From assembly GCA_045660045.1 (NCBI GenBank), contig JAZRDB010000013.1, forward strand, positions 612-64,611: 64,000 nucleotides of DNA, read 5' to 3'. This stretch comes from Alphaproteobacteria bacterium. Its GTDB lineage: Bacteria; Pseudomonadota; Alphaproteobacteria; CAAHEQ01; UBA3637. The notes under the pieces were generated by a model. The model did not search any database and was not told the origin of the DNA. It was given only the letters and a program-made list of their open reading frames with translations. Shown here one piece after another: positions 18,972-60,470 of the stretch (position 1 is its first letter; the number at the start of each line of letters is the position of its first letter). The translations under genes and the position numbers were made by a program.

Positions 18972-19409
18972 TTATCCTTTCTTGTTTAAATGAACCGCTT
19001 TTGATTTCTTTTGAATCTCAATCCTTTTTATATTAGGACTTTTTTGTGGTTTTTGCAAGGTAATAATTAAAAGACCATTTTCCAAGACGGCACCTTTGAT
19101 TTGCATGCCATCGGCCAATACGAAAGATTTAATAAAAGATCTGGCTGCAATGCCTTGATGCAAATAATGGCGATTCGGATCATGTTCTTGACGACCACGA
19201 ACAATCAATTGATTATCTTCTTGTACAATATCTAAATCATCATCAGTATATCCAGCGACAGCCATTGTGATTTCAAAAGTAGTCGTATCCAATTGCTCGA
19301 CGTTGTAAGGCGGAAATGAATCGGCCCCCTTGGCGACTCGGAGTAACATTTGTTCCAATTCGTCAAACCCAACCAAAAAAGGATTGTTAAAGGGTGTTAA
19401 ATTAGGCAT
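18972..19409 (-). CDS. Small heat-shock protein, Hsp20/IbpA family
   Basis: 145 aa alpha-crystallin domain (…FEITMAVAGYTDDDLDIVQEDNQLIVRG…GLLIITL…). Confidence 0.85.
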   Translation of the reverse strand: MPNLTPFNNPFLVGFDELEQMLLRVAKGADSFPPYNVEQLDTTTFEITMAVAGYTDDDLDIVQEDNQLIVRGRQEHDPNRHYLHQGIAARSFIKSFVLADGMQIKGAVLENGLLIITLQKPQKSPNIKRIEIQKKSKAVHLNKKG

Positions 19410-45599: not shown

Positions 45600-46668
45600 A
45601 ACACTAACAGTGCTATGTGCAGGAGCTTTATTGAGCACCACGATGTTGATGCCGGTGTCATCCGCTTGGGCGGAAGGAACGTGGCAAAAGGGCGGTTTGG
45701 CAACCAACCAGGTATCCGGAGGAACAGCAAAGGCACAGAAAACTATTACGGATGTCTTGGCATATTGGGGATTACTCTCAAACAGCATCTTATTTGCGAC
45801 ATCTTGGATACCAATACACTTTTTACCTGGTATTGTGTGTACTTGGGCTACTATTATTCCCGCATGTAGAGCATACCTTGCGGGTGGTTCTACTCAGCAT
45901 GGCTTGAATATTGATGTTGCAGGTGCGGCATTGGATGGGGTGTTGTTGTATGATGCAATGCATAAAAAGGCTGTATGGAGTGAAGATATTCCTAATTTGG
46001 AGGCCCAGATTCGTCAGATTGGAAGCGCCGCTGATTTAGAGCAAGAATGTGAAGATGATGAAGAGGGGAGCTGTAATGCAACAAATGCAACATTAGATAA
46101 GACAGAAGTGTACATTAAAACTCTAAAGAACGTAGGATTGGAAGCAATTGAAGATGTGGCCGGGTCGATATTGAAGACGCCGACAGAGTTGATTAGTGCT
46201 GGCCCTTACATTCAAGAAGGTTTTGGTTCTGAGGTTGAAGGTATTGATGTGAGTAAAAGTGTCGGTAAAAAGACATCAAGTGGTACCATCTTGTGGAGCG
46301 ATTATTTGCCCGATGAAAACGACAATACAACGAATAATGGTACACGCACTACGACTGCGGTTAAAAAGGAACGAACAGAAACAGAATTAAACGATATTAA
46401 GGATCGCAAGTTGGCGCATTTACAATTGACAGGCACGGCTGGAGTAGCGCGTGCGGATATGGGTGCGACAGTGGCAAGATCCGAGAAAGCAGCGTTTGAT
46501 CGATTAAGTTCATATGTGGGGTCGGGTGATGGATTGATTGCCAATATTAAGGTTTTAACTGGTTTAGATTTAACCTTGAGTCAACGATTGAATACGCTGA
46601 ATATGTTACAAGGTCAACAAGTGGCAAACGATGCGGCAAGCGCGCTACAGTTTGTGGAAACCAAATAG
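45589..46668 (+). CDS. Secreted protein 1 of 5 (359 aa), T4SS-associated candidate
   Basis: Start at the ATG at 45589 behind a perfect AGGAGG RBS. Signal peptide MLNKTLTVLCAGALLSTTMLMPVSSAWA. Contains a hydrophobic segment and an acidic/Cys segment. The start overlaps the upstream stop. Confidence 0.5.
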   Translation: MLNKTLTVLCAGALLSTTMLMPVSSAWAEGTWQKGGLATNQVSGGTAKAQKTITDVLAYWGLLSNSILFATSWIPIHFLPGIVCTWATIIPACRAYLAGGSTQHGLNIDVAGAALDGVLLYDAMHKKAVWSEDIPNLEAQIRQIGSAADLEQECEDDEEGSCNATNATLDKTEVYIKTLKNVGLEAIEDVAGSILKTPTELISAGPYIQEGFGSEVEGIDVSKSVGKKTSSGTILWSDYLPDENDNTTNNGTRTTTAVKKERTETELNDIKDRKLAHLQLTGTAGVARADMGATVARSEKAAFDRLSSYVGSGDGLIANIKVLTGLDLTLSQRLNTLNMLQGQQVANDAASALQFVETK

Positions 46669-46677
46669 GGGGCAGGG

Positions 46678-47589
46678 ATGAGATTGAAAAAAGTTTTAAT
46701 TATATGTTTTGTTTTTTGTTTAATCTGGCAACCTTCTGTTGGATTTTCAGCGTTTATGTGGAAACCAAATTTTTATCAAAGTCTTATGGAAACGATTGTT
46801 GGATTTTTGGCACGTGAATGGAATCGGCACACAGAAACCATTCACTATGATGTGACTAATGGTTTGGAAAAAATTAAGTCCAATATTGGGATGTATCGTG
46901 ATAAAGGTGATTGTGGTATTTCTGCAACGGGGAATTCGGGATGTGACTTGACAACGCCCGAACAAGGGGCTGAAGAGGATGCAGCTATGGATGCTGAAGC
47001 GGCAGTGATTCCAGATAGTACGATTGCGATTATTACTGAAAGTGAGGATGACGGGACAATTACGCTGGATGGCAAAAGCGATAAGGAGGAAAGCAAAAAC
47101 GAAAAAGATGATACAATTGGCAGCTATGTGGTTGGTAAAAAGGGAGATAAATTTGATCAGGTGCGTGCAAACGTGACCGAGTATATCTTTATTTCTACTA
47201 AAGAAAATGCTGAGGATGTGGATGCCGATTGTCGATGCAACAAGGGAACGGGAACGGTTTGTGAAGCGTCCGAATGTGCTCAACAACGTCAAAATGATGC
47301 TTTGTATCAGGCTTCTTTGGGCGCGTCCAGTACGGCGGATTTCAATTTACAACAAATGGATAAGCGTTACCAAAACGTCACAAAGGCCGTTTCCGAAATC
47401 AATGAAGTGAGTACAATTGCGGATTTTGTGGGTAAGATGGGGCGGTTGTCTGTTTACGCATCGGATGCGGTGGCAAATATGATGACTTTGCAAACACATG
47501 ATTTACGGGCGCAATCTTACCGTAATTTGGTGTTTGGTGGAATTAATCCGGTTGATTTGTCCAAATTAGGCAAAGGAGATAAAAAATGA
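46678..47589 (+). CDS. Secreted protein 2 of 5 (303 aa)
   Basis: Signal peptide MRLKKVLIICFVFCLIWQPSVGFSAF and an acidic middle region, with a helical C-terminal region reminiscent of VirB5/TrbJ-type proteins. Confidence 0.5.
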   Translation: MRLKKVLIICFVFCLIWQPSVGFSAFMWKPNFYQSLMETIVGFLAREWNRHTETIHYDVTNGLEKIKSNIGMYRDKGDCGISATGNSGCDLTTPEQGAEEDAAMDAEAAVIPDSTIAIITESEDDGTITLDGKSDKEESKNEKDDTIGSYVVGKKGDKFDQVRANVTEYIFISTKENAEDVDADCRCNKGTGTVCEASECAQQRQNDALYQASLGASSTADFNLQQMDKRYQNVTKAVSEINEVSTIADFVGKMGRLSVYASDAVANMMTLQTHDLRAQSYRNLVFGGINPVDLSKLGKGDKK

Positions 47590-48365
47590 GAAGATTTTTT
47601 GGGGTGATGGCTGTAATTGTTTGTTTGCTGTGTGGTAGGAGCGTGAGAGCCGTTGAAGAGATGGCGAATATGTGGACGCCCATCCCTATAGTGGATCCAG
47701 TTATGATTGGTGATTCAATCCGAGGACTTACTGCTAGTATTTTGGCATTAACAAAAGCAGGACCTGAGCCAGAATTGGGGGCTGTTTTGAATGTTCAACA
47801 ACAAGAAGTTGGTGCTTTGGAAGATGGAGATGAGTCTTACCGTGTGGATGAGGGAACAGGATCTTCGGATGGATCTGGTGATTTGGCAATTTCTGCTTAT
47901 GAGTATATGAAAGAGAAGGTATTTACAGATTCCAAAAAGACGCCTTATGCACCATTAAACCGAAAATTGTCGAATGGAGCCGATATGAAGAAGGTGGTCA
48001 AGGAAATGTTCTTTATAGAAAATGAAGCAGATAATACGGAAGCAAAACAGGCCGAAATTGTGAAAAACAGGACGGAATATTTAACGACCGTTGGTAAAGA
48101 ATATACAAGATTGGCTTATGAAATGCACAAAAAAATTGCTGATGATATGTCAGCGGTTAGTGCAGATATCAACGGAAATGGTTCTATTGGTGCAGTTGCA
48201 GGTATGGATCAAACATGGAAGGCTGTCAATAAGGCGTTGATTGCAGATATCGGAATGCAAATTCAATTGATGGAGTTGGATGCGGCGAAATTTTTATCTG
48301 TTCAACCGATCATGATTATGTCGGAGAATCGTCCAGAAACGAGTAATCAAGGATCCAATGATTAG
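47586..48365 (+). CDS. Secreted protein 3 of 5 (259 aa)
   Basis: Signal peptide MRRFFGVMAVIVCLLCGRSVRA. The start overlaps the upstream stop (ATGA). Confidence 0.5.
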   Translation: MRRFFGVMAVIVCLLCGRSVRAVEEMANMWTPIPIVDPVMIGDSIRGLTASILALTKAGPEPELGAVLNVQQQEVGALEDGDESYRVDEGTGSSDGSGDLAISAYEYMKEKVFTDSKKTPYAPLNRKLSNGADMKKVVKEMFFIENEADNTEAKQAEIVKNRTEYLTTVGKEYTRLAYEMHKKIADDMSAVSADINGNGSIGAVAGMDQTWKAVNKALIADIGMQIQLMELDAAKFLSVQPIMIMSENRPETSNQGSND

Positions 48366-48375
48366 GAGGTATGTG

Positions 48376-49512
48376 ATGAAAAAGTTATTATTAGGTTCGT
48401 GTATCCTTTCTTGCTTGTTGTTAGTGGAAATAGGTGGATATGCAACAGCTGCAGACAGTGTTGCGTCGGACAGCAAAACAACGGGCGCATCGACAAGCCG
48501 TGCAACACAATACACCGATGCAAACAGTGGTTATGTGAAAAATTCTTCAGAGGGGATGAATAAAACAAAAAATAATCCGAAAAGCGAAGAAGGTGCGGAT
48601 CCTGTGTCAAAAACGGCAAAAGATGCTGATTATTCGCCAGATGCAGGGAATAAAGCCGCTCAAGTTGATATGGGAATTTCAATTGCTTCTGCGGCGTTAG
48701 GTGTTGTAGAAGCTATTATAGGTGCAAGCTTAGACCAGATGATAAGAGAATGGGTTACGACTGAAGTGTTAAGCATTGCAGTGAGCCCTGAAGTTCCTCT
48801 TCATAACGAATCAATAGCTTTTGGTTGGGGACTTCAATTTAACCCAATTGCAACCGCCGTTACCCTTGGGCATGCGGCTGTAAATAAATTTATGCGAGAT
48901 GCGACAAATATTACAGCTTCGTTCACTGGGGCTGAAGGTTTTGTGACAGATAAATGGGTGGGGCCTCATCCAAGGAATACAACAACGGCCATTATGGGGG
49001 ATATTAGTGTTACATCCGAGAAATTTGATGCGTTGACATTTGATCCAAAAGAATACGAAGGTTTGAAAGATGCTGATAAAGCTTCTGCGCGCCAGTTGAT
49101 GGATTATCGGTCTGAGCAGTTAATTCAGGATCAACGTTCATTGTCAAATGTGGCTACTGCGCAATGGGGTATTTTGTATCGTGCACAACAACGTTCTATC
49201 AAAGGATTGGCCGGTGCATTGGAATTGAAGTCTCAATTGACAGCACTGGGTGAGATCGAAAAAAAGATTTCGGCTGATTATAAAAATAAACCAAGCGCTT
49301 TGAATACGGTGGCTTCACGTCGTGCTTTATATGATGCCTTATTGTTATTAAAAATGAATGTAATGGCTGCGCGTACAAAATTGCGTTCGGAAACTTTGGA
49401 ATTGGATTTCAAGCCGATGACAAGGGAGCCTGAAATTATGGAGGACGATGAAGATCCAACCCCTCAGAATGTACCGGCTGGTCCACCTTTGTCACCAAAG
49501 GAAACTCAGTAG
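48376..49512 (+). CDS. Secreted protein 4 of 5 (378 aa)
   Basis: ATG at 48376 behind an AGGAGG RBS. Signal peptide MKKLLLGSCILSCLLLVEIGGYATA. Confidence 0.5.
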   Translation: MKKLLLGSCILSCLLLVEIGGYATAADSVASDSKTTGASTSRATQYTDANSGYVKNSSEGMNKTKNNPKSEEGADPVSKTAKDADYSPDAGNKAAQVDMGISIASAALGVVEAIIGASLDQMIREWVTTEVLSIAVSPEVPLHNESIAFGWGLQFNPIATAVTLGHAAVNKFMRDATNITASFTGAEGFVTDKWVGPHPRNTTTAIMGDISVTSEKFDALTFDPKEYEGLKDADKASARQLMDYRSEQLIQDQRSLSNVATAQWGILYRAQQRSIKGLAGALELKSQLTALGEIEKKISADYKNKPSALNTVASRRALYDALLLLKMNVMAARTKLRSETLELDFKPMTREPEIMEDDEDPTPQNVPAGPPLSPKETQ

Positions 49513-49527
49513 TAAGGGAGAAAGCTC

Positions 49528-50691
49528 ATGAAAAGAATATTGTTTTTTGGCGTGTGTTTTGTTGCTTTGTTTAGTACAACAGCTGAAGCGTTGCGCTTTG
49601 GTACGACGCCAGTTGTGCCGATTGAAATGAATACCTTAACGAAGTTTTTGCCGTCACATAATGAGGCTTTGGATAAAGCCTTAGAAGTACATAATTTGAT
49701 GACGGAATTGCCGTCTATACAAACTATGGCCGAGCAGCAAGAAAAGATGAAAAAAGAATCTCGTAAGATGAAGAAATATTTCGAGAACTTATTGAAATGC
49801 AATGAAAAGCGTTTTGGTCGTTTTAAAAATTCAAAAGAGATTTTGAAAAAGGTACGGGCCGCATATCAAGAACGCACGAAAGATTTAAAAGATGACGAGG
49901 GATATTATGCAGAAGACAGTATTGTACCTCGTTCTTTGGCTGAACGTGGCTATCTATGGGATAAAAAAAGGGACATTGAACAAGAAATCATGACGGATGC
50001 TTTGACCAATGGCCGTAAGTGGGGCGGTGAGTTGGTTAACAGAAAAAAACAAGATGTGCCAGAAGATATGAGAATGAAGATGACTGGTACTGGCTTAGAA
50101 GAGCTGATGCTAGCAGAAGATAGTACAAAAAATGCAGATGTTGCAGAAATGGATATGGATAAGACCTTGAAGCAAATGCAAGAATCCTTTATGAAGCGGT
50201 TGGCTGGTGTTGGATTGACTTTTCCGGAATTTAATCCGGCCCAAACGACGGATATCAGCAAAGTTCGCAAAGAATTGAAAGAGTTAAAAGATCAATATAT
50301 TGTTGAGGCAAAAGAATATATTGTTAAGTTGGATGAACAAGATGCAGCGCACCCACGAGCGGTAGCAAAACGCGCGGCAAGAACACGTAATAAGGCGCGA
50401 GTTTTAACGAATGTGAAGGAACAATTCCCAGAGGCATTTGCCGAGATGGAACAATTTGATCAACAAACACCGCAGCAACAGCAACTGGCTGTTATTAATG
50501 CGTTGGAGAAAGATGCAAATGGAACAGTTTATTTGACCGAAACAAATGCATTAGAGGTTGATCAACGTATCAGCGAGGCAAAAGCAAATAAAGCGATGTT
50601 GAAAACTTTTACCGATATGGCGGATGATATGTTGGAAGAAATGCGTTCAAAAAGGCCAGAGCAAGAATTTGATTTCAGTGTTTGCTCATAA
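49528..50691 (+). CDS. Secreted protein 5 of 5 (387 aa, Lys/Glu-rich coiled coil)
   Basis: Signal peptide MKRILFFGVCFVALFSTTAEA. Highly charged helical protein. Confidence 0.5.
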   Translation: MKRILFFGVCFVALFSTTAEALRFGTTPVVPIEMNTLTKFLPSHNEALDKALEVHNLMTELPSIQTMAEQQEKMKKESRKMKKYFENLLKCNEKRFGRFKNSKEILKKVRAAYQERTKDLKDDEGYYAEDSIVPRSLAERGYLWDKKRDIEQEIMTDALTNGRKWGGELVNRKKQDVPEDMRMKMTGTGLEELMLAEDSTKNADVAEMDMDKTLKQMQESFMKRLAGVGLTFPEFNPAQTTDISKVRKELKELKDQYIVEAKEYIVKLDEQDAAHPRAVAKRAARTRNKARVLTNVKEQFPEAFAEMEQFDQQTPQQQQLAVINALEKDANGTVYLTETNALEVDQRISEAKANKAMLKTFTDMADDMLEEMRSKRPEQEFDFSVCS

Positions 50692-50702: not shown

Positions 50703-51332
50703 ATGGCCAATTCAGGAAGAACACCTTGGCAATTGACACGCCTGCTGATGATTCTTTGTTGGCTATTGTGGATTATAACATTTTTTATAACGGTCACTTT
50801 GTTTCAGGCTGTTCTGCAGATTCACGTTGTATCGCAAGTTCTTCAAAACGTGGAAAAAAGCTTTATGTGGTTTAGCCAAGATTTAGTTCGAGCCACGCCG
50901 TTGAATGTTGTTGATCGGGGGCGTTTGGATGAAATGTTGGTACGGTATTATTTGGAAATGAGGTATTCTGTGATTCCTGATCGAGCCGAAATGGAACATC
51001 GTTGGGGTGAGAATGGTATTGTGGCATATTTGTCCAGCCCTGCTGAATATAAGAATTTTAAACCAAATTCAAGTTTTTTTGACAAGGTTGATAATATGCA
51101 ACCGAGTGTGGTGGATATTTTGAAAGTGGATCGCAAAGGTACCTATTTTACTGTTGACTTCGACGTCTATACTTTCGATGGATCCACAAATTGGAGAAAA
51201 GAACCACGGCGCGTTGTGGTACAATATACCTATGCATCGGGGCGTAAGTTGTTGGGGAAATCAATATCAAATCCATTTGGTTTTATTGTAACGCGGGTGG
51301 ATGAATCTGACAGAAAATCGGTGACGCAGTAA
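50703..51332 (+). CDS. virB8: Type IV secretion system protein VirB8 (copy a)
   Basis: 209 aa with a short cytoplasmic N-terminus, one TM helix (LLMILCWLLWIITFFITVTLF) and a periplasmic NTF2-like domain with VRYYLEMRYS and …VVVQYTY… motifs. Confidence 0.7.
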   Translation: MANSGRTPWQLTRLLMILCWLLWIITFFITVTLFQAVLQIHVVSQVLQNVEKSFMWFSQDLVRATPLNVVDRGRLDEMLVRYYLEMRYSVIPDRAEMEHRWGENGIVAYLSSPAEYKNFKPNSSFFDKVDNMQPSVVDILKVDRKGTYFTVDFDVYTFDGSTNWRKEPRRVVVQYTYASGRKLLGKSISNPFGFIVTRVDESDRKSVTQ

Positions 51333-51401
51333 TTTTTTAATTGATAAAATTATTTAAAGTGTTAAAATGAAAATTATGAAGGGATAACAGAAAGGGTGAA
51401 A

Positions 51402-51578
51402 ATGCAAAAAATAGTTTATACATGTTTGGCTGTAGCAGCCATTGTTTTGGGGGCTTGTGGAACGATTTATGAAAAAGCACCGGTTGGAATTGGCACGGAA
51501 TATTCCGAGTTGAAAAAATCCCCTTGTGCATGTTTGGAGTTAAAGAAAGCACCAGAAGTGCCAGAATGGTTCTCGTAA
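51402..51578 (+). CDS. virB7: VirB7-like small lipoprotein
   Basis: 58 aa with lipobox IVLGAC. Its size and its position between two virB8 genes and upstream of virB9 match rvh-type loci. Confidence 0.5.
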   Translation: MQKIVYTCLAVAAIVLGACGTIYEKAPVGIGTEYSELKKSPCACLELKKAPEVPEWFS

Positions 51579-51594: not shown

Positions 51595-52302
51595 ATGGCG
51601 GATCAAGAACAAACGTCTTCTCATCCACGCAATGCGCGTGAGGTTTTGCAAGAAGAGCGCTATCTTTGGATGGCGCGTGCGTTTGTTGTGATGATGGTTT
51701 TGGCCATTATTTGTGATGTGATTTTGTTGATCGCTTTGGCAAATGTGACGCCTGTGTTACGTATTCAGCCATTTTATTTGGAAATTCAAAACAAAGACCA
51801 ACAAATTGTTTCGGTAAAACGTCCCTCGCTTGAAACATTGAATTCGGATACCTTAAAAGAATCTTTGGTTCGTCAGTATATCTTGTCGCGTTTTGGTGTG
51901 GGGTCTGATCTGACGGAACTGGAGGAAAGATGGGGACCCAAAGGGCCTGTGTTTTGGATGAGTGATCAATCTGTGTATGATGAATTTGTTCAAAAACAAT
52001 CTGTTCCTGCTCAAAATAAAGCTCGTAAAGATAATTTTATTCGTGATGTGCGTGTGTTAAGTGTGAACAAAACGCATGATGGTGGGCCGATGGGATCGGA
52101 TATGTGGCAGGCTGAATTGGAATTTCAAGATACCGACAGAACAACCACCAAACCGATTATTTCTAATTGTGTGGCAAATATGGCCACTGCTTTTCGTCCA
52201 ACAAAACCCGGTTTGACATGGTCAGATCGTCTTAAAAATCCACTTGGTTTTGTTATGTTGGATTTTGGTATTAAGTGTACCCAACAAAAAACGAAAAAAT
52301 AA
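51595..52302 (+). CDS. virB8: Type IV secretion system protein VirB8 (copy b)
   Basis: 235 aa with a TM helix (FVVMMVLAIICDVILLIALANV) and an NTF2-like domain (…LVRQYILSRFGVG…WQAELEFQD…). Confidence 0.7.
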   Translation: MADQEQTSSHPRNAREVLQEERYLWMARAFVVMMVLAIICDVILLIALANVTPVLRIQPFYLEIQNKDQQIVSVKRPSLETLNSDTLKESLVRQYILSRFGVGSDLTELEERWGPKGPVFWMSDQSVYDEFVQKQSVPAQNKARKDNFIRDVRVLSVNKTHDGGPMGSDMWQAELEFQDTDRTTTKPIISNCVANMATAFRPTKPGLTWSDRLKNPLGFVMLDFGIKCTQQKTKK

Positions 52303-52377
52303 TATTTTTTTACTGGACTTTCTTTTTGTTTTTAGATAAGCTGAAATAAAGCGGTGTCTAGACATAAGGAGGAACCG

Positions 52378-54054
52378 GTGAAAAAAAAGATATTTTTTAG
52401 GGGAGTTTTGCTTGTTTTAACAGGGGTTTTAGGGGCCTTTGCTTTGCCAGCTGTTGCTCAAATGAATTTACCAACAGATCCTCAAGCTCAACAAGTAGCA
52501 GATGCTATTGCTGGCGCTTCGGGGGAATATGATGAGGTGAATTTGGATTACATCCACCCACTTGGTATGCAACAAAAAGCATGGAATAATCCTTTGGCAC
52601 ATATGGGATCTGGACAAAGTAAACCAGGTTATTCGAAATATAATTGGACACCAGACACTGTGTTGCCTGTGCGTTTGCGTGAAGGAATGATGACTTTGAT
52701 CAATTTGCCAACATGGGAGTTGATTGAAAAAGTTCATATTGGCGCGCCGGAATCATTTAATGGGGAAGTTGTTTCTCCAAACTCAATGCTTTTATATGCT
52801 GATCCTTCGTATTTGGGCGTGGATGGAAATATGATTATTTTTGGTCGATCCGGCAATCGTTATGTGTTCTATTTGCGTAGTGAGACATTTAACACAGATA
52901 AGATTACACAATCTGTTGTGGATGTGTTGGTTGGACCACGTTGGACACCCGTTGCGGATGGGGGACAAATGGTTAATGGCAGTGGCGCTTCTTCTATGGC
53001 TTCAATGCCTTTAATGGCAGCTGGTTCACCGATTTCGCGCGGTGTCAGTGGAGGAAGTTCTGCAATGGCAGTTAATTTGGCAGACGAATGGAAAAATAGC
53101 GTGCCAATGGATCCAGAAGCATTGAAGTTTGATTTGGATATGTTTTTACCAAATCCAGATGATGTAGATATTGCCCCAGACAATGTGTGGCGTGATAATA
53201 TCTTCACATACATTGATTTGGGACCAAAGGCATTAACAATGGTACAACGACCAGTTGTGAGTTTGATTGTTCAAGATACAGAGGTGCCCGTCGGATTTAG
53301 AACACGTGGTCCGAACAGCCGTTTGATTGTTGTAGAAGCTATTGGTGATTTGGTCTTGCGAAATGGCCAAAAAGTGATTTGTATTAAATTGCGTCGTGAT
53401 CCCGCGGCTGGTTTGGAATATACCGATTATTCCGGCTTTAATGAAAAACCATATGCTTATAACCAGCAATTACCTGTTCGGGGTCAAGATTTGCCGAACC
53501 CAGAAGTAACGTTGTATGGTGGTACTGTGTTACATGGTCAAAATCCATATGCTCCAGCGCAAAATGGTGGCACAATGAACTTGGCTTATGCCACAGAAAC
53601 AGGTGGTATGAATCCGTATGCGGGTGCAATTAACCCATATTGTGATGATACAACGGGGGCTAATCGTTGTGGTGGTACAGCCGCATGGCAACCAATTCAC
53701 GCCATTCCAAGTAATGTGCGTAATTCGTCTGCAGCCCATGCAAATATTGATGCAATTCAAGCAAATCGAAATGTGATTATGCCAATTGCCGCAAAAGAAA
53801 ATATTGCATTGGAGTTTGGTACAGCTGCCGAAATCGCGGATTTGGAGAAATTGTGGGAACAGATTTATTCCAACAATGCTGATTTATTGGCTGGATATGA
53901 TCCATATTATTCCGCAGATACATCAGCAACGGGTGATATGGTTGATTTGTTCCGTTTGCGTGTTGGGACTGTCAAAGATGCCGAAACGGGTGATGCGTTA
54001 TGTCGGAAATTGGGGCGTCGCGGTTATTCATGTTCGGTGGTCAGAATTAAATAG
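52378..54054 (+). CDS. virB9: Type IV secretion system protein VirB9 with a Gly/Ser-rich insertion and a C-terminal SPOR-like peptidoglycan-binding domain
   Basis: GTG start at 52378 behind an AAGGAGG RBS gives the signal peptide (V)KKKIFFRGVLLVLTGVLGAFALPAVAQ; the ORF track starts at 52354. It has a VirB9/CagX N-terminal domain (…TLINLPTWELIEKVHIG…RYVFYLRS…) and C-terminal domain (…FTYIDLGPKALTMVQRPVVSLIVQD…ICIKLRR). A ~200-aa extension follows, ending in a SPOR-like motif (DLFRLRVGTVKDAETGDALCRKLGRRGYSCSVVRI). Confidence 0.75.
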   Translation: MKKKIFFRGVLLVLTGVLGAFALPAVAQMNLPTDPQAQQVADAIAGASGEYDEVNLDYIHPLGMQQKAWNNPLAHMGSGQSKPGYSKYNWTPDTVLPVRLREGMMTLINLPTWELIEKVHIGAPESFNGEVVSPNSMLLYADPSYLGVDGNMIIFGRSGNRYVFYLRSETFNTDKITQSVVDVLVGPRWTPVADGGQMVNGSGASSMASMPLMAAGSPISRGVSGGSSAMAVNLADEWKNSVPMDPEALKFDLDMFLPNPDDVDIAPDNVWRDNIFTYIDLGPKALTMVQRPVVSLIVQDTEVPVGFRTRGPNSRLIVVEAIGDLVLRNGQKVICIKLRRDPAAGLEYTDYSGFNEKPYAYNQQLPVRGQDLPNPEVTLYGGTVLHGQNPYAPAQNGGTMNLAYATETGGMNPYAGAINPYCDDTTGANRCGGTAAWQPIHAIPSNVRNSSAAHANIDAIQANRNVIMPIAAKENIALEFGTAAEIADLEKLWEQIYSNNADLLAGYDPYYSADTSATGDMVDLFRLRVGTVKDAETGDALCRKLGRRGYSCSVVRIK

Positions 54055-54062: not shown

Positions 54063-57000
54063 ATGGCTGGTAGTCACGAGAGTTTATCAGAGCAATCAAG
54101 ACGTAGAACCTCATGGATTTTATCTGTGTTGGGGTTGATTGTGTTAATTCTCTTTGTGGCGGTTTTGTGCTCGATGCGCAAAAAAAGCACTCAGGTTGTG
54201 CAACGCGAGGATCGTCCAAGTTTTGTTGTTCAATCAACATTCGGAGATGACTCAGATTTCAGTGGAACATTACCTGAATTTGGTGTGCGTAATGCCCAAT
54301 TAGTGGTTACGCCTGATAATGTTGATTTGTCACAGGTTGTTTTGGGATCTCAAGCAGAAGCTGCCTTGGTATTGCGCGCTGAAAATGGTCCTTTAGTCTT
54401 TTTGCAAAAATATCTTGCAGAAGCGCCAGAAGGTGGCTTTATGTTGACTGGTCCTTGTATGGAAAAAACACAATTAGAAGAGGGCGAGGAATGTTTATTG
54501 AAAGTAACTTGGGCACCTATTACAGTTCAAACTATTCAAAACACATTGACAATTGTATGGCGAGAAGATAATGCTCGTGTGTTTCAAGATGAAAGAACGC
54601 AGATTCAATTGAAAGCCAGCTCGACAGATTCCAAGGAATGTGTGTGCTGCGAAATTGAAAAAGACAAAGATCCAAAGGTGCCACGTAAGGTAGTTGGCAT
54701 TGATGGTCAAGAGCGTGAATTAAAAGATGGCGAAAAAGTTGTTGGCGAAGTTATTTTGGATGAAGAGGGAAATGTTGTCGCGATTGTTGAGCCAGAACGT
54801 GTTGCTTTGGGCTTGAACAACGAATATTTGGGCCGTGTGACGGATCGTCGGACGGTTGAAGATAAAAATGGCGAAGTGCTAGGACGGTTATTGGGAGATG
54901 ACACGCTGGTTGATTCTGAATTTAACGTCCTGGGTGCCGCTGTCCCATTGGTTTCTGTGTTGGATGCTCAAGGCGTTGTTATTGGGAAGATGGTGGCCGA
55001 TGATGATGGAGCTCGTGTTGTGGATGCGGAAGGAAATGTTATTGGTACACCTCGTGTAGATAAATCGGTGGTGGATAAAGCTGGTTTCCAAATTGGTATG
55101 TTACGTGATTGGGGCGCAGCGTTGGATTTATCGGGTAATTACATGGGTGTGATTTTACCAACAGCCGCGGTTATTGGTACAGATAAAAAGATTATGGGCT
55201 ACATCCAACAAAACGGTTTTGTCACAAATGATGCAGGCGCTTTGGTGGGCGGAGTGGTCCCCAAAGGTGCGGGTGTTGGAACTGGATGTCGTTCATATGG
55301 AACAGTTGCATTAACGGGCCAAGTCAAAGATACATATGGTCAAGTGATTGGTCGTGTGTTATTGGATGGGGCTGTTGTTGATACGAATTTCAACGAAATC
55401 GGTTCTGTTGTGAATCAAGGTTTGATTGTCAACATGAAGGGAGATGTTGTTGGTTTTGTCAATTCTGAAGGGAAAGGGGTTGATGGTAAAGGTAATTTGA
55501 TGGGCTGTGTTTCGCCAAATGGCATGGTGGCTGCTGGGAAAAAGGTTGTTGGTGGTGTGATGCAAAAAGGATATGTAACAGGTGAAACTTGTGGTGTTCT
55601 TGGTTCTGTTTATCCAAATGCTCAGGTGATGTCTGCCGAGCTACGTGAGATTGGTAAGGTGCGTGCTGATGGGTATGTCATTAATGGTAATAACAAAAGA
55701 ATAGGAGTTGTTGTGCCGCATGGAACAGTTTTGGCTGAAGGATGTCGTTTGGTTGGCGTGATTTCTGTCACTGGACAAGTATTGAATCAACAAAATATGT
55801 CTGTTGGGTGTATTAATATGGAGAAGAAAGCGATTGATACCGAGGGACGAGAAGTCGGCAAAATTACGCCAACAGGCCCTGTTTTGGCAGCAGATGGTTC
55901 TTTGGTTGGTCGTGCACGGTATGATGGTCGCATTGTTGATAAAACAGGCAAGATTATTGATTGCGTGAGTCCAGAAGGTACAGGAGTTGGAACCAAACGG
56001 GGCGTTGTTTTGGATGAAAATGGTTTGCCAACAGGATGGACTGCTTTGGCTGGGAAGTGTTATAATGATCGCAACGAAGAAGTAGGGACAATCGCTTTTA
56101 ACGGATGGGTTTCGGATAAAGAAGGTAAAATGATCGGTTTTATGCCTGCAGATGGTGTTGTATTTGGATTGGATGGTGTGGTCTTAGGAAGCTATAATCA
56201 ATTGATGGGAACTGCAACCGATACAAAAGGTGATCCGCTGGGACGTGTGATGCCGGATGGAACTGTGTTAGATTCAGATGGGCATAAGATTTTGGGATCT
56301 TTAATTCCTGAAAGTGCAACGTTTCTTAGTTTGGATGGCTCTGTTTTAGGAACGTTAAATTATGAAGGTCGATTATTAAATGAAACAGGACAATCTGCAG
56401 GGCGTGTTTTATCTGATGGTGCCGTGTATAATGCCGAAAACGTTTTAATTGGTGGCGTGATTAGATCTGGGATTGTTTTGGCGGCTAATGGATCAGAGGT
56501 TGGATTTGCCAATGTCAAAGGGGATGTTTTGTCAAAAGGAACACGTATTGCCAATTTATTGCCCAATGGATTGGCTGTGACGCCGGATAATCGAGTGTTA
56601 GGTCGTTTGTGGGATAATATGACTGTTGCCGTGTCGGCTGGTGGTGTGATTGGCCCAGTTGTGCTGCGCGCGACTTCTGGCGATAACTCGACATATCAGG
56701 CTGCCGTGTATGATAGAAATGGTAGTTATGTTGGAGCGATGTCTGGCTATGGTGTTTTGTTGAACAGTGATGGGCGCTTGGGCGGCATTGCTTTCCCTGT
56801 CACAATGGTTGTTAATATGGACCATGAATTAATTGGTTGGGTTGGCTTTAGAGGGATGGTGATAAATGCAGAAGGACAAGTCATTGGTCAATTAAGTCAA
56901 AATGGTTTAGTGATGAACTCGACAGGAGCGATTGTTGGAACAGTATTATCTAAAGGAACGGTTGTTGATGGGCGTGGTGGTTTTGTGGGGCGTGTAGCTG

Positions 57001-60000
57001 CTAATGGTGGTATCTATAATGGGTCTGGCGCAACAGGATTGTTTGTCGGTCCGCAAACCTATATCTTTAATGAAGATATGTCCATCAATGCTCGTGTGTT
57101 GAAAGATGGTTTGGCGATTGATTCCTCTGGTCAAGTGTTGGGTTGGACTGGTTTTACTGGGCAAATAATGAATTCAGAACGGGCATTAGGGGCGGTTGCC
57201 TTGGATAATCGTGTGACAAGTACCGAAGGTGAACTGGTGGCAAGCTATGTTCCATTGGGTGCGCCATCTATGCATGACGACGAAAAAATGTGCGCGGTTG
57301 TTGCAGAAAATGGGACGGCGGTTTCGGCAAGCGGACGTGCTATCGGAACAGTTATGGCTCCTGATTATGTGGTGCAAAACAATATTATTGTGGGACGCAT
57401 TCATCCAAGCTCGTTGTTTGTTCGTAATTTGACAAATTCAAGTTTAATGGGAATTGCAGATTTAGATGGTATGGTATATCGTGCCAATACGGCTCGACAA
57501 TCTGGTACGATGGAAATGAACGATTTGGTTGTTGATTCAACGAAAAAAGTTGTTGCAGGTTTGGTTGGTACAGGTTTTGCAACATCCAACAACTTAAAGT
57601 CTTTGGGACGTGAAAATTATACTGGTTCTGTATGGTTAGCTGGCAAAGTGATAGGATCAGCGTCGGCAATTAATGTGGTTGAACAAGGTGATTCAATAAC
57701 AGGTGGCATTTTTGAACCCGCGGTTATTGTGGATCGTAATGGACTTGAAATCGGTCGTTCGGATGCGTTGGCGGCTGTAACAGATAAGACGGGCAAAAAG
57801 ATTGCTTCTCGGATGGCATTTTATTCCGCTTTAACTCCAGAAACTTTGTGGGCTGGTGGTCCTATTCGAACGGGTGCCGTGATTGATGACTATGCGCGCA
57901 AAGTTGGGACGGTTGCAGGAGATGGTTTAATTATGGCCGGAAGCTCATTAAAAGGACGCATCTTGTCGGATGGTAGTGCTGCGGCAGTTGCCAATAAATC
58001 TGTGTATAATCCCATGCCTTATACGGGGCATTTAGTGACCCAAGGTTTGCCGATGGGATATAATAAGGCAGTTTTGGGTCGGACCACTATTCAAGGAGAT
58101 TTATTGGATGCCTCGGATAAGGTTATTTTCCAAGAACTGGACGATGCTTCCATCTTGGGCAAAGCAAGGCCGTTGGAAGGTATGGTATTGCCATTCAGAC
58201 CGGCCGTTTCTCAAAATAATACATTATTGGGTGTGTTGGACGGAAGTGGAAAAGTTGTTGATCACGCAGGCAATGAGATTGGGCCAGTTGTGAGCAATGG
58301 TGCGGTCAAGGGCGATCATGAGTTGAAAATTTTAGGATCCTTAATTCCAGAAACATTGGTGGTAAATGAATGTAAGGTGATTGGTCAAACGTCTTATAAT
58401 GGTGAAGTCATTAATGGTCAAGGTAATACAATTGGTCGTATGCAGGCGGATCAGTGGGCTGAAGATCCTCAGGGCAAACGTTTGGGCCGCTCTGTGCGCC
58501 ATGGCCCAGTGATGAGTCCAACTCATCCAGCGATTTATTTGGGTCGCACAATGCCAGATTCAACTGTTGTTGATACAGATGGTGCAATGTTGGGATGTGC
58601 ACAAAATGATAAGATTGTGAAAGATGCCAATGGTAATATGTTGGGCGCTGTGATTGACCGTGGTCCCGTGTTTAACAAAGCAGGCGATATGTATGGTCGT
58701 GTGGACGCCATGGGACGTGTGATTGGCGTGGATAATGAAGTGTTGGGATACATTATCGGAGATGGAACGGATCGTGCTTTTGATTTCAATGGAAATGAAA
58801 TCGGTCGGATGGTTTCTAAAACAGATGAAATTTTATTTGATGAAAATGGTAAATTTATCGGTACGTTTGATTTAGAGGGATATCGTAAAGATGCAGACGG
58901 TAACATTTTGTTCCGCGTGGGTAAAGATGGTACACTTTATGATAAGTGGGGTAATCCAATCGGCAAATTGGGCGATGGCATGGATTACATATACTTGTAT
59001 GATATGCAAGATAAAATTGTGGGTCGCTTGAATGGGTGTGATTTGCAAAAATTGCCAGGTAATGAAAAAATGGGTTCTATTTTGGCGAATGGTGATATTC
59101 GTGATCCAAATAATGAATTAATTTTAACAACCAGTGCGGATGGTAAGGTGTATAACCCAGATGGGACACAATACGGTCGCTTTGCCGGTGTTGGATTGGA
59201 TTTGCGCCGTTGTGGTTTGTCTTCTAGTAATGTTGGAGCTGGTCGCAAAATTACATGGGGAACAAAACAATACAACATTGATGATGGTGGTATGATTACA
59301 GACAATACGGGAAGAGTGGTTGGTAGTTGGGATGCCGTGAATAATCGTCCTTATATTTGGGATACCGCAGGGGAACAAAATGAACTACGAGAACCACCTC
59401 CTGCACCAAAAGTTCCAAAGATTCCATCTGAAGTTCGTGCTACATTTGACGATTTGCAAAAGAAGCGTCGTGCCCAGATGAAGGAAAAAATAGGTGGTCA
59501 ACCTGCAATCATTCCTGGCCCTGAAATTTTGGCTCGTGCCAAAGGCCACAAGGATAAAGATTGGTCCTCGGTTGGAACCAATAAGAGTAATATTTCTACA
59601 TGGCCAGTGGATATGTCCCGAGTGTTGTTAGCTGATAAAGCAGTACCGGCTGTTTTGGTGCGTTCAATAGATTCTCGTTATCCAACAGTGCCTGTGACAG
59701 CTATTGTAGAGCGTCATATTTATGCGGAAGCCGGTCGTAATATCTTGATCCCAGCTGGTAGCCGTTTGATTGGCCAAGCAACATCTAAAACTGGTATCTT
59801 TGGTTCTGATCAGGCCGCTAAGATTGACATATCTTGGAAACGATTGATTAGACCAGATGGTGCTGCGTTTAAGTTTGAAGCCGTGTCTGGTGATGCACAA
59901 GGGCGTGGTGGCGTGGCTGCCTATTTGGATTTGCAGTTGATGAAAAAGTTTATGTTGCCGTTCGTGTCTACAATTGGGCAATGGCCAATCTTGAAGGCAA

Positions 60001-60470
60001 CTGAATTGAATGAGAAAGACAGCGTAGCTTCTACAACACAAAACTCTTCTGGTGGAACAACGTCTCAAACGGCGGCATCGCAAACGCGGACCGCATTTAT
60101 TGACAATTTCAAAGAAATGTGGGAGAAGTTGATGGAAATGGCAGAGGAAGTGCCGAATATTGTATATGTGCCATCTGGCACGCGTTTGACGGCTTTTGCT
60201 AGCGAAGATTTATGGCTACGTTCTGTGGAAGACGATGAAGAGGCTATGAAAAAAGAGTTTGGTTTCTCGCCTAGCGCATTATTACCGAATAATGGTTCTT
60301 GGGTCAATGGACGTAAAGATAAAAATGATGGGGGGGGCTCTAAAAATAAAAAAGAAGATTCCGTTCCTTCGCCACCCCAAGAGGAGCCTATCTATGTCCC
60401 AGACGATATTGATGACAGGGTGAGAAAGCCGGTGAATCAGCAGCCCGAACAACCACCTGCATATTTCTAA
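54063..60470 (+). CDS. virB10: Giant type IV secretion system protein VirB10 (2135 aa) with a ~1700-aa internal repeat domain
   Basis: N-terminal TM helix (WILSVLGLIVLILFVAVLCS). About 95 degenerate 17-18-aa repeats of the form G-x-x-[IVL]-G-x-[VI]-x-x-[DN]-G-x-V-[VIL]-[DN]. A proline stretch (PPPAPKVPKIP) follows. The C-terminal VirB10/TrbI domain includes VPAVLVRSIDS…, ILIPAGSRLIGQ… and ISWKRLIRPDG…. The acidic tail ends …PPAYF. Confidence 0.8.
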   Translation: MAGSHESLSEQSRRRTSWILSVLGLIVLILFVAVLCSMRKKSTQVVQREDRPSFVVQSTFGDDSDFSGTLPEFGVRNAQLVVTPDNVDLSQVVLGSQAEAALVLRAENGPLVFLQKYLAEAPEGGFMLTGPCMEKTQLEEGEECLLKVTWAPITVQTIQNTLTIVWREDNARVFQDERTQIQLKASSTDSKECVCCEIEKDKDPKVPRKVVGIDGQERELKDGEKVVGEVILDEEGNVVAIVEPERVALGLNNEYLGRVTDRRTVEDKNGEVLGRLLGDDTLVDSEFNVLGAAVPLVSVLDAQGVVIGKMVADDDGARVVDAEGNVIGTPRVDKSVVDKAGFQIGMLRDWGAALDLSGNYMGVILPTAAVIGTDKKIMGYIQQNGFVTNDAGALVGGVVPKGAGVGTGCRSYGTVALTGQVKDTYGQVIGRVLLDGAVVDTNFNEIGSVVNQGLIVNMKGDVVGFVNSEGKGVDGKGNLMGCVSPNGMVAAGKKVVGGVMQKGYVTGETCGVLGSVYPNAQVMSAELREIGKVRADGYVINGNNKRIGVVVPHGTVLAEGCRLVGVISVTGQVLNQQNMSVGCINMEKKAIDTEGREVGKITPTGPVLAADGSLVGRARYDGRIVDKTGKIIDCVSPEGTGVGTKRGVVLDENGLPTGWTALAGKCYNDRNEEVGTIAFNGWVSDKEGKMIGFMPADGVVFGLDGVVLGSYNQLMGTATDTKGDPLGRVMPDGTVLDSDGHKILGSLIPESATFLSLDGSVLGTLNYEGRLLNETGQSAGRVLSDGAVYNAENVLIGGVIRSGIVLAANGSEVGFANVKGDVLSKGTRIANLLPNGLAVTPDNRVLGRLWDNMTVAVSAGGVIGPVVLRATSGDNSTYQAAVYDRNGSYVGAMSGYGVLLNSDGRLGGIAFPVTMVVNMDHELIGWVGFRGMVINAEGQVIGQLSQNGLVMNSTGAIVGTVLSKGTVVDGRGGFVGRVAANGGIYNGSGATGLFVGPQTYIFNEDMSINARVLKDGLAIDSSGQVLGWTGFTGQIMNSERALGAVALDNRVTSTEGELVASYVPLGAPSMHDDEKMCAVVAENGTAVSASGRAIGTVMAPDYVVQNNIIVGRIHPSSLFVRNLTNSSLMGIADLDGMVYRANTARQSGTMEMNDLVVDSTKKVVAGLVGTGFATSNNLKSLGRENYTGSVWLAGKVIGSASAINVVEQGDSITGGIFEPAVIVDRNGLEIGRSDALAAVTDKTGKKIASRMAFYSALTPETLWAGGPIRTGAVIDDYARKVGTVAGDGLIMAGSSLKGRILSDGSAAAVANKSVYNPMPYTGHLVTQGLPMGYNKAVLGRTTIQGDLLDASDKVIFQELDDASILGKARPLEGMVLPFRPAVSQNNTLLGVLDGSGKVVDHAGNEIGPVVSNGAVKGDHELKILGSLIPETLVVNECKVIGQTSYNGEVINGQGNTIGRMQADQWAEDPQGKRLGRSVRHGPVMSPTHPAIYLGRTMPDSTVVDTDGAMLGCAQNDKIVKDANGNMLGAVIDRGPVFNKAGDMYGRVDAMGRVIGVDNEVLGYIIGDGTDRAFDFNGNEIGRMVSKTDEILFDENGKFIGTFDLEGYRKDADGNILFRVGKDGTLYDKWGNPIGKLGDGMDYIYLYDMQDKIVGRLNGCDLQKLPGNEKMGSILANGDIRDPNNELILTTSADGKVYNPDGTQYGRFAGVGLDLRRCGLSSSNVGAGRKITWGTKQYNIDDGGMITDNTGRVVGSWDAVNNRPYIWDTAGEQNELREPPPAPKVPKIPSEVRATFDDLQKKRRAQMKEKIGGQPAIIPGPEILARAKGHKDKDWSSVGTNKSNISTWPVDMSRVLLADKAVPAVLVRSIDSRYPTVPVTAIVERHIYAEAGRNILIPAGSRLIGQATSKTGIFGSDQAAKIDISWKRLIRPDGAAFKFEAVSGDAQGRGGVAAYLDLQLMKKFMLPFVSTIGQWPILKATELNEKDSVASTTQNSSGGTTSQTAASQTRTAFIDNFKEMWEKLMEMAEEVPNIVYVPSGTRLTAFASEDLWLRSVEDDEEAMKKEFGFSPSALLPNNGSWVNGRKDKNDGGGSKNKKEDSVPSPPQEEPIYVPDDIDDRVRKPVNQQPEQPPAYF

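Follow-up and report, generated by a model that had tools for sequence, protein, structure and literature searches.

The 64-kb stretch of DNA analysed here, referred to below as the window, belongs to the chromosome of an uncultured gut or rumen alphaproteobacterium and carries a cluster of T4SS genes on its forward strand. The first of these genes encodes a divergent VirB8 paralogue (VirB8a; 50703..51332), which gives a weak Pfam VirB8 match (E 0.008) and is kept in 77 of 80 related loci. It is followed by a gene for a VirB7-like small lipoprotein (51396..51578) whose lipobox reads LGAC and which contains the conserved motif KKSPCAC, recognised from its translation and found in 78/80 related loci, and by VirB8 itself (VirB8b; 51595..52302; Pfam VirB8 E 1.4e-13; 78/80 loci). 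The VirB9 gene that is the subject of this study, VirB9::SPOR, occupies positions 52378..54054, with its stop codon at 54052-54054, and was recognised from the list of open reading frames, its translation and Pfam matches to CagX and SPOR. Downstream lie the genes for a giant VirB10 of 2135 aa (54063..60470) and for the VirB11 ATPase (60480..61463; Pfam T2SSE; TIGR02788 VirB11, E 3.8e-43). The giant VirB10 has a C-terminal TrbI domain (Pfam E 6.8e-26) and at least nine beta-flower repeats (Bflower_2, E 3.3e-59); it is present in 79/80 loci and measures ~6.5-8 kb wherever the contig holds the whole gene. The order VirB8a, lipoprotein, VirB8b, VirB9, VirB10, VirB11 was seen in the window and in 77-79 of the 80 related loci, which were kept from 99 stretches with a relative in a collection of one genome per species. 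For the six ORFs upstream, neither NCBIfam nor Pfam gave anything useful, and VirB2-B6 and VirD4 are absent from the 64-kb window.

The longest ORF at VirB9::SPOR (52354..54054, +) opens at an upstream GTG and encodes 566 aa, the length reported in the earlier note. A start at the GTG at 52378 yields 558 aa. Because the Shine-Dalgarno sequence AAGGAGG (52366..52372, +) lies 5 nt upstream of this second GTG, and because the latter matches the MKKK starts of homologues in the alignment, the real product is probably the 558-aa protein; the figure of 566 aa holds for the ORF from the upstream GTG. Residue numbers throughout refer to the 566-aa ORF. The protein is laid out as a signal peptide, a VirB9/CagX core, a low-complexity tether of ~120 aa and a C-terminal domain of ~85 aa. 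The signal peptide, VKKKIFFRGVLLVLTGVLGAFALPAVA (52378..52458, +), is predicted from the pattern of the translation to be of the Sec type, with cleavage before Q and no lipobox, which would place the mature protein in the periplasm.

The VirB9/CagX core (52633..53388, +; residues 94-345) matched Pfam CagX/VirB9 PF03524 with an E-value of 1.2e-14 and 55 bits, above the curated cut-off of 34.2 bits. The match runs over profile positions 4-196 of 198 and covers both the N-terminal (I-layer) and the C-terminal (O-layer) VirB9 domain; the core itself ends in ...RRDPAAGLEYTDYSG at about residue 361. The adjoining VirB8 and VirB10 genes agree with this assignment. The model for the P-type VirB9 equivalog, TIGR02781, gave only a weak match, 36.7 bits where the cut-off is 217.7. 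Judged by these profile scores, the product is a divergent member of the VirB9 family and not the P-type equivalog. The CagX match takes up 252 residues against 193 profile positions, so that it includes an insertion of ~59 aa. This corresponds to a Gly/Ser/Ala-rich linker between the two domains (52939..53103, +; residues ~196-250), which forms a variable block in the alignment and measures 49-71 aa in the family. It had been described before as a Gly/Ser/Ala-rich insertion; the segment does exist, though as an enlarged form of the flexible linker that joins the N- and C-terminal domains in all VirB9 proteins (PMC13417560). In solved systems the core complex is 14-fold, and these two domains sit in its I-layer and its O-layer (PMC9371333).

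Beyond the core the protein continues for another 206 aa, in agreement with the NPY/Gly-rich extension of ~200 aa that had been noticed in the sequence. The extension consists of ~120 aa of low complexity, rich in NPY motifs, Gly, Ala, Ser, Asn and Gln, and of the last ~85 aa, which finish in ...LFRLRVGTVKDAETGDALCRKLGRRGYSCSVVRIK. The low-complexity part (53434..53796, +; residues ~361-481), delimited from the translation, where Pro is also frequent, and from the alignment, spans 82-169 aa in relatives (median ~130) and varies in sequence as well. Since it varies in both length and sequence while the domain at its end is conserved, it fits a flexible leash. AlphaFold gave it a pLDDT below 50, in a full-length model that is poor everywhere but in the SPOR domain.

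The C-terminal domain (53797..54051, +; residues 482-566) comprises the elements b1 (483-491), a1 (494-512), b2 (517-522), b3 (532-540), a2 (543-555) and b4 (561-565). When the full protein was searched, Pfam SPOR PF05036 scored 19.9 bits, just below the cut-off of 21, whereas the C-terminal 93 aa alone reached 24.9 bits (E 2.5e-5), a borderline pass in which the alignment covers only profile positions 29-76 of 76. Among 26 family members, 23 matched SPOR and no other family (best E 3.8e-8), and in more distant lineages SPOR was the sole family matched, at 20-28 bits. Fold searches independently returned SPOR structures, and the predicted domain has the b-a-b-b-a-b (RNP-like) fold of ~75-85 aa that can be superimposed on solved SPOR domains. 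As the relatives match SPOR alone and the fold searches lead to the same structures, the SPOR match is not due to chance. Sequence searches of the PDB with the domain profile returned CwlC alone (E 0.6) and did not reach the solved SPOR domains, and hhalign against a mini-profile of FtsN, CwlC and RlpA aligned only b2-b4, with a probability of 83%. In the full-length AlphaFold model (32-sequence alignment; mean pLDDT 42.6) the SPOR domain alone was confident and everything else was poor, and the model was discarded for the VirB9 core and for domain packing because of its low pLDDT. The SPOR-like tail proposed in the earlier note is thus borne out by the profile match to the isolated domain and by the fold, in one ORF with VirB9. 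Its further proposal, anchoring to septal peptidoglycan, is more doubtful, as discussed below.

The fusion was found in 78/80 of the related loci, which come from gut and rumen alphaproteobacterial MAGs, and more than 900 full-length homologues were detected. A sequencing or assembly frameshift joining a normal VirB9 gene to a small SPOR gene, which the earlier note had considered as a source of the C-terminal 200 aa, has virtually no probability and is ruled out by this conservation: the ORF 52354..54054 is unbroken, all 120 of the listed homologue clusters measure 509-617 aa across many independent assemblies, the domain lies in the same ORF in those 78 loci, each from a species-representative genome, and complete plasmid sequences of cultured bacteria show the same architecture. 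Nothing was found in favour of it; one related locus (L069) has an early stop in the ORF holding the VirB9 core, and another (L015) is truncated by the contig end.

Diverged versions of the tail occur on conjugative plasmids of cultured Erythrobacter (E. aureus YH-07, WP_115418090.1), Sphingosinicella (BN140058, WP_129392748.1) and Microvirga (VF16, WP_203447098.1). The cores of these VirB9 proteins are homologous to that of the gut protein (34-40% identity), their C-terminal domains share its Cys pair, and the plasmid systems have the same small PCAC-motif lipoprotein; the full KKSPCAC motif was seen in small ORFs 5′ of VirB8 on the Erythrobacter and Microvirga plasmids. The tails of Erythrobacter and Sphingosinicella contain a VRLRVGPF strand and a shorter tether of ~40 aa. 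Pfam SPOR scores of the plasmid tails are under the cut-off (Erythrobacter 17.3, Sphingosinicella 13.1, Microvirga none). In contrast to the gut locus, with its giant VirB10 and two VirB8 genes, the plasmids carry a VirB10 of normal size (529-590 aa) and a single VirB8, within complete conjugation clusters that include a relaxase, VirB2-B6 and VirD4. That the fusion is retained in 78/80 loci, as well as in the T4SSs of plasmids from cultured bacteria, argues for selection on it. The view that such a tail is not a standard feature of VirB9 therefore holds for the model systems, but the tail is widespread in one alphaproteobacterial T4SS family, plasmids included.

In SPOR domains of known structure the ligand is taken on the sheet face, and the sole highly conserved residue among them is a Gln that contacts denuded glycan (FtsN Q251, RlpA Q270), touching MurNAc and GlcNAc in both RlpA and FtsN; it is called preferred, not universal, for SPOR domains (PMC6895207). 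The VirB9 tail lacks this Gln in strand b1. Glu487 occupies the column in 79/79 sequences, an equivalence based on motif register, the MAFFT column and the predicted strand, as the profile methods align the domain only from b2 to b4, its second half. This sets the tail apart from the SPOR domains of FtsN, DamX, DedD, RlpA and CwlC. Across the tails read in the wider family, the position holds Glu or Asp in most and Gln in one; among the plasmid proteins it is Asp in Erythrobacter and Sphingosinicella and Ile in Microvirga. Nor is the Phe of RlpA F274 retained. In FtsN, the exchange Q251E lowered both septal localisation and denuded-glycan binding (bioRxiv 10.1101/2024.05.13.594014). The VirB9-tail domain is also acidic (median pI 5.3, net charge ~-2), whereas the SPOR domains of FtsN (pI 9.6) and CwlC (pI 9.1) are basic. 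The replacement of Gln by an invariant Glu, the weaker binding of FtsN Q251E and the acidic domain cast doubt on the binding of septal peptidoglycan.

Other features of the face are those of a SPOR domain. R534 aligns with FtsN R285 and RlpA R309 in both hhalign and MAFFT and is Arg in 73/79 sequences and His in 6/79, which preserves the basic residue of b3 that belongs to the basic patch for MurNAc. R536, the equivalent of RlpA R311, is invariant, as are E487, G538, C550 and C560 among others. When conservation was viewed on the predicted structure, the sheet face was conserved (E487, S520, D522, R534, R536, G538, V562) and the helix surfaces were variable. In the most distant relatives both R534 and the residue at the Gln position are unconserved. 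Binding of the cell wall by this domain is plausible from its sequence, and the presence of Glu or Asp beside invariant Arg residues suggests that the preferred wall feature may differ from denuded glycan.

With canonical VirB9/TrbG proteins (A. tumefaciens VirB9, pKM101 TraO, X. citri VirB9) the protein shares the Sec signal peptide, both VirB9 domains, the gene position between VirB8 and VirB10 and a small VirB7-like lipoprotein nearby. It differs in being about twice as long, with an interdomain linker ~55 aa longer and the 206-aa C-terminal extension, which the model VirB9s do not have. Core-complex subunits are known to bear lineage-specific additions (PMC9371333, PMC13417560). The Cag T4SS of H. 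pylori likewise combines an enlarged VirB9 (CagX) with a giant repeat-rich VirB10 (CagY). In CagX, however, the added segment is a helical insertion of 130 aa that lies within the N-terminal region, in contrast to the SPOR-type domain tethered at the C-terminus here, and the repeats of CagY are alpha-helical, whereas those of the VirB10 described here are of the beta-flower type. Classical SPOR domains are carried by divisome and wall-remodelling proteins, while the carrier here is a secretion-system subunit. A functional analogy only can be drawn with the secretin PilQ, also an outer-membrane ring subunit with an accessory module of the peptidoglycan-binding type. The AMIN domains of PilQ capture monomers at the septal or polar wall and thereby set the position of the machine (PMC5285504, PMC10653833). 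The two machines are unrelated, and the modules differ in fold (AMIN against SPOR) and in location, being N-terminal in P. aeruginosa PilQ (PMC5285504) and C-terminal in VirB9; moreover, the role has been shown experimentally for PilQ, whereas for the VirB9 tail we infer it.

The explanation that we favour, and in which we place moderate confidence, is that a genuine VirB9 carries a tethered SPOR-fold domain which anchors or positions the T4SS core complex in peptidoglycan. VirB9 would act as a periplasmic/outer-membrane subunit of the core complex. From its C-terminal domain, which in solved systems lies in the O-layer beneath the outer membrane, the presumably disordered tether of ~120 residues would lead to the SPOR-fold domain of ~85 residues, and every copy of VirB9, of which a ring has 14 in minimised systems, would lower such a domain to the peptidoglycan around the machine. 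There the domain would attach to a glycan strand through its beta-sheet face, and the core complex would be held or positioned in the wall, as with the peptidoglycan-binding modules of other trans-envelope machines. Given the atypical cleft, with Glu/Asp beside invariant Arg residues instead of Gln, the wall feature preferred by the domain may not be denuded glycan.

It is possible, though on the unlikely side, that the SPOR fold has been repurposed, no longer binds peptidoglycan and serves as a protein-docking module inside the T4SS; it might bend back to the giant VirB10, a VirB8 paralogue or another periplasmic ring component, or clasp neighbouring VirB9 copies to one another. The exchange of Gln for Glu/Asp, which weakens glycan binding in FtsN, would fit such a change, as would an acidity seen in neither of the two SPOR domains compared. 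The invariant Cys550/Cys560 pair is family-specific, placed at a2-b4 where the pair of FtsN is at b1-b4, and together with L497, E498 and W501 it does not belong to the SPOR hallmarks. Expanded T4SSs are also known to gain lineage-specific VirB9 domains, such as the PI domain of CagX, which is required for OMC integrity (PMC13417560). Yet the conserved surface is the very sheet face with which SPOR domains bind glycan, including the Arg residues equivalent to RlpA R309/R311. Furthermore, the domain is kept in the plasmid systems, where giant VirB10 repeats and a second VirB8 are missing, so that neither of these can be its partner, and a leash of 82-169 aa would be odd for a fixed intramolecular contact.

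Targeting to the division site, instead of static anchoring, we consider unlikely. Here the domain would read a wall mark enriched at the septum and the new poles, and with the same low probability VirB9 monomers would be caught at midcell and the nascent pole would receive its machine in advance, as happens with type IVa pili. A dedicated wall hydrolase of the VirB1 type would then be less necessary, and none of the genes scanned at the window locus or in the T4SS cluster of the Erythrobacter plasmid showed a VirB1-like/SLT hydrolase domain. However, VirB2-B6, VirD4 and any VirB1 may be located elsewhere in the genome, which makes this negative result weak evidence, and a cell-wall hydrolase gene adjoins the T4SS cluster of Microvirga. 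All characterised SPOR domains are reported to go to septal denuded glycan (PMC6895207; bioRxiv 10.1101/2022.07.01.498525), and the AMIN domains of PilQ offer a precedent from a pilus machine, but Glu in place of Gln is precisely the substitution that cuts septal localisation of FtsN. A bolder and rather improbable proposal would accommodate this substitution: the VirB9-attached domains may make up a distinct subclass of SPOR domains, with an acidic residue and Arg paired in place of the Gln, that reads a mark other than denuded glycan, such as strands de-N-acetylated or modified in some other way. VirB9 would thereby be captured at division septa and the T4SS assembled into the nascent pole with no VirB1-type hydrolase required. 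If true, this would mean wall-encoded positioning of the T4SS, common to plasmid conjugation and to a chromosomal system of gut Alphaproteobacteria.

A literature search, in which the terms were sought jointly and papers on T4SSs and SPOR domains were judged by title, found no paper describing a VirB9 with a SPOR domain; one paper, on Mucispirillum schaedleri, names TrbG and SPOR once each. How the machine is placed and held in the cell wall is poorly understood for most T4SSs. The wall-related T4SS parts known so far are a hydrolase of the VirB1 type and the OmpA-like DotK of Legionella. Anchoring through the VirB9 tail, the reading that we prefer, would put a module of the wall-binding type within VirB9 itself and would be a compact answer, open to testing, to the placement of a T4SS in the cell wall. 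The cultured hosts Erythrobacter, Sphingosinicella and Microvirga make experiments feasible, and the invariant Glu at the SPOR Gln position offers a natural experiment on the ligand specificity of SPOR domains. Should the domain not bind the wall, it would exemplify a SPOR fold taken over as a structural component of a secretion machine.

The gene for VirB9::SPOR, a VirB9 with a C-terminal SPOR-type domain (52378..54054, forward strand), lies in a single unbroken ORF of 566 aa in the ORF list (52354..54054). On reading the sequence we found AAGGAGG at 52366-52372 and a GTG start codon five bases downstream, at 52378. Because homologues have their MKKK... N-termini at the position aligned with this GTG, a product of 558 aa is probable; residue numbers refer throughout to the 566-aa ORF as returned by the tools. 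The translation begins with a Sec-type signal peptide, and Pfam recognised the CagX/VirB9 domain at residues 94-345 (E 1.2e-14, 55 bits against a cut-off of 34.2). This match spans 252 residues for 193 profile positions, the surplus being, according to Pfam and the alignment, a Gly/Ser/Ala-rich block at ~196-250, which separates the two VirB9 domains. Near residue 361 the VirB9 core gives way to 206 further residues: a tether of ~120 residues of low complexity, containing NPY, Gly, Asn and Gln motifs, and a conserved part of ~85 residues that terminates in LFRLRVGTVKDAETGDALCRKLGRRGYSCSVVRIK. Both the insertion and the long NPY/Gly-rich extension within one ORF had been described in the earlier note, and both are present. 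In the tether (53434..53796, forward strand), residues ~445-470 of an otherwise variable stretch hold a short semi-conserved motif (…M.P…IP..V..S..AS.GI.GV…), a candidate linear docking motif; in the alignment I451 and P452 hardly vary, and a PYC.D.TG..RC motif with two Cys is found in the tethers of close relatives.

The C-terminal domain is a SPOR domain at the level of profile and fold, as the earlier note had suspected. In the full protein, Pfam placed SPOR over residues 514-564 at 19.9 bits, below the cut-off of 21; scanned alone, the last 93 residues scored 24.9 bits (E 2.5e-5), above it. SPOR was the sole Pfam family matched in 23 of 26 family members (best E 3.8e-8). AlphaFold, given a 26-sequence alignment, returned a confident model of the domain (pLDDT 85.7, pTM 0.73) with a SPOR-like element order, strand-helix-strand-strand-helix-strand. 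Among solved structures, sequence alone gave a weak match to CwlC (E 0.6), and hhalign aligned only b2-b4 with solved SPOR domains, at a probability of 83%.

A search of 5.8 billion proteins yielded at least 920 relatives. All 120 relatives listed are 509-617 aa long, with PF03524 and PF05036 precomputed for many. When a collection with one genome per species was scanned, 99 stretches encoded a relative, and 80 loci were kept. Almost all come from uncultured Alphaproteobacteria of goats, yaks, sheep, deer, rabbits, chickens and humans (rumen, gut or faeces); 'Acetobacter sp. CAG:977' and 'Candidatus Scatocola faecigallinarum' are among the source genomes. This gut clade probably belongs to the GTDB order RF32. 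The extension is shared: the SPOR-type domain closes the VirB9 ORF in 78 of the 80 loci, the exceptions being L015, cut by the contig end, and L069, where the ORF with the VirB9 core ends early. An assembly artefact that fused two genes is excluded, since those loci all carry the same fusion and the ORF is unbroken. The order VirB8-like gene, small lipoprotein, VirB8, VirB9::SPOR, giant VirB10, VirB11 is kept in 77-79 of the 80 loci (one, L076, was examined in full); VirB11 was found in 67, a count limited by contig ends.

In the window, the type IV secretion system (T4SS) locus is flanked by dnaA, uvrA, lepA, htpG and infC and is chromosomal; any other T4SS genes of the source organism would lie outside the window. 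The dnaA gene (19402..20790, reverse strand) precedes the first ORF of the locus by ~21 kb. Between 42000 and 62000, across the whole locus, GC skew takes strongly positive values (0.18-0.35), and the GC content at its 5′ end (0.42-0.48) is slightly above that of the flanks.

A profile search of 1.84 billion representatives retrieved 730 relatives, 102 with E below 1e-30. Among them are many 'long' VirB9 proteins (400-630 aa) with the match confined to the core, and Microvirga species are among the named members. Of the 150 best relatives, 44 carry the C-terminal domain according to a local HMM, and inspection by eye shows the same helix-Cys...Cys-strand tail on about twenty further ones; in Holosporales MAGs the long tail is Pro-rich and lacks the domain. 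The best matches in a plasmid collection came from plasmids of cultured Erythrobacter aureus YH-07, Sphingosinicella sp. BN140058 and Microvirga sp. VF16, where they sit in complete conjugation clusters. The Erythrobacter cluster encodes, in this order, a MobA/MobL relaxase, a DnaB-like helicase, VirB2, a likely VirB3, VirB4, a VirB5-like protein, a likely VirB6, a small lipoprotein, VirB8, VirB9, VirB10 (529 aa), VirB11 and VirD4. The other two are arranged in the same way, with some genes annotated as hypothetical proteins only. The plasmid VirB9 proteins end in the same domain (e.g. YEVDLGSG...DVRLRVGPF...VCKAMTAAGKSCAVI), and SPOR was again the sole Pfam family matched on distant tails (27.7, 22.2, 21.0, 20.1 and 17.3 bits).

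Just upstream of VirB8 in the window is a small lipoprotein ORF (51396..51578, forward strand) with the lipobox LGAC and the motif LKK[ST]PCAC. The KK[ST]PCAC motif is common to this ORF and the plasmid small lipoproteins (12985-13191 in the Erythrobacter locus L081; 12693-12869 in the Microvirga locus L082). This lipoprotein, present in the gut-clade chromosomal locus and on both plasmids, is probably the VirB7 of this T4SS family. Together, the plasmid VirB9 with the same tail, the shared lipoprotein motif and the SPOR matches indicate that the gut-clade locus derives from an alphaproteobacterial T4SS family whose VirB9 long carried a SPOR-type tail.

Three features set the gut clade apart: a long tether (median ~130 aa), a duplicated VirB8 and a giant VirB10. 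The VirB10 homologue of the window (54063..60470, forward strand) has 2135 aa, with TrbI at its C-terminus and, before it, nine or more 'beta-flower' repeats (PF21785, E 3e-59), whereas the plasmid VirB10 proteins are of ordinary size (529-590 aa). Where the contig holds the whole gene, giant VirB10 ORFs of the clade span ~6.5-8 kb; the homologue in Acetobacter sp. CAG:977 has 2445 aa. CagY is likewise a giant VirB10, but with a different type of repeat. Two tandem VirB8 paralogues (50703..51332 and 51595..52302, forward strand), the first very divergent (Pfam E 0.008), are encoded in the window, and the duplication is kept in 77 of the 80 loci, in contrast to the single VirB8 gene in each of the Erythrobacter, Sphingosinicella and Microvirga clusters. 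Upstream of the VirB8 genes lie six consecutive ORFs (1243, 373, 303, 259, 384 and 387 aa; 41868..50691, forward strand), low-complexity or coiled-coil, without a match in Pfam or NCBIfam and patchily conserved (5-35 of 80 loci). The five that were read from the start have signal-peptide-like N-termini, and within the 1243-aa protein a stretch of ~40 aa is directly repeated (…KEKGNESSAEGDKRG.GSAEQGKGEGGPNQEGSES…). Possible products of these ORFs are surface components, pilus components or effectors that belong to this T4SS.

Elsewhere in the window, a single ORF of 1077 aa (28602..31835, reverse strand) joins an LptF/LptG-type LPS permease (residues 6-352), an inner-membrane part, to an OstA/LptD translocon (residues ~380-1011), an outer-membrane part, with a signal-peptide-like segment, KEKRIGWIHLAILISLSFTMPTHA followed by MPKLD, between them. 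Since both Pfam domains occur in all 120 homologue clusters listed (nearly all 1062-1096 aa, one 880 aa), the fusion is conserved in this clade. The product is either a covalent Lpt bridge from the inner to the outer membrane or a polyprotein that signal peptidase cuts.

VirB9::SPOR is a VirB9 with a SPOR-fold tail on a variable low-complexity leash, in a conserved gene arrangement. In a minimised T4SS, 14 copies of the VirB9 C-terminal domain lie in the O-layer beneath the outer membrane (PMC9371333). We infer that, on its leash, each SPOR-type domain would extend to the peptidoglycan surrounding the machine, where its sheet face would bind glycan and so anchor or position the core complex, a mechanism for which we see an even chance.

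In the structure of RlpA-SPOR, Q270 (FtsN Q251) is the only residue highly conserved among SPOR domains of known structure. This residue makes contacts to MurNAc(1) and GlcNAc(2); for FtsN Q251 the authors presume binding to the lactyl carboxylate of MurNAc, and a basic patch (RlpA R309, FtsN R285) completes the glycan site (PMC6895207). The FtsN, CwlC and RlpA sequences agreed with the PDB. In a MAFFT alignment with the new family the b1 Gly was the only invariant column, and the Gln column two residues before it has Glu487 in the window protein, an equivalence that profile methods did not support. Glu was found at position 487 in all of 79 sequences; in the wider family most tails read have Glu or Asp there, and one has Gln. 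In FtsN, the Q251E substitution lowers septal localisation and denuded-glycan binding (bioRxiv 10.1101/2024.05.13.594014). The SPOR-type domain is also acidic, with a median pI of 5.3 versus 9.6 for FtsN and 9.1 for CwlC. The Glu at the Gln position and this acidity would suit a SPOR fold recruited for a protein contact inside the T4SS machine. We consider this unlikely, as the Arg-bearing sheet face is preserved (R534, aligned with FtsN R285 and RlpA R309, is Arg in 73 of 79 sequences and His in the other 6; R536, the counterpart of RlpA R311, never varies) and plasmid systems whose VirB10 is ordinary and whose VirB8 is single keep the domain. Slightly less likely still, by analogy with the AMIN domains of PilQ, the domain could read a septal or polar mark and pre-install the machine at the new pole, which fits weakly with the clusters inspected (the window locus and that of Erythrobacter), where no VirB1-type hydrolase was recognisable.

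Returning to glycan binding by the sheet face, those residues of the sheet that are predicted to face outward (E487, S520, D522, R534, R536, G538 and V562) are invariant and the helix surfaces are variable; strong selection therefore acts on the SPOR ligand face. Glu487 is predicted to adjoin Arg536 on the neighbouring strand, where FtsN has Val. With this adjacency its negative charge may be paired and not free, and the FtsN mutant would then be a poor guide. Cys550 and Cys560, invariant in the family and placed differently from the Cys pair of FtsN, are probably joined by a disulfide in the periplasm.

That VirB7, VirB9 and VirB10 can bear additional domains is well recognised (PMC9371333). 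The best-studied addition to VirB9, the PI insertion of CagX, differs in being an internal helical segment, one that is important for the stability of the O-layer (PMC13417560). No paper mentioning both VirB9 and a SPOR domain was found in the literature searched, and SPOR appears in none of the database names seen for the relatives ('TrbG/VirB9 family', 'VirB9-like', 'ComB9 competence protein'). VirB9::SPOR thus joins a known machine subunit to a known wall-binding fold, in a combination new to that literature and with an atypical binding residue. Its importance would rise if wall-directed positioning of the T4SS or a new SPOR specificity were shown, and the cultured Erythrobacter or Microvirga permit such experiments.
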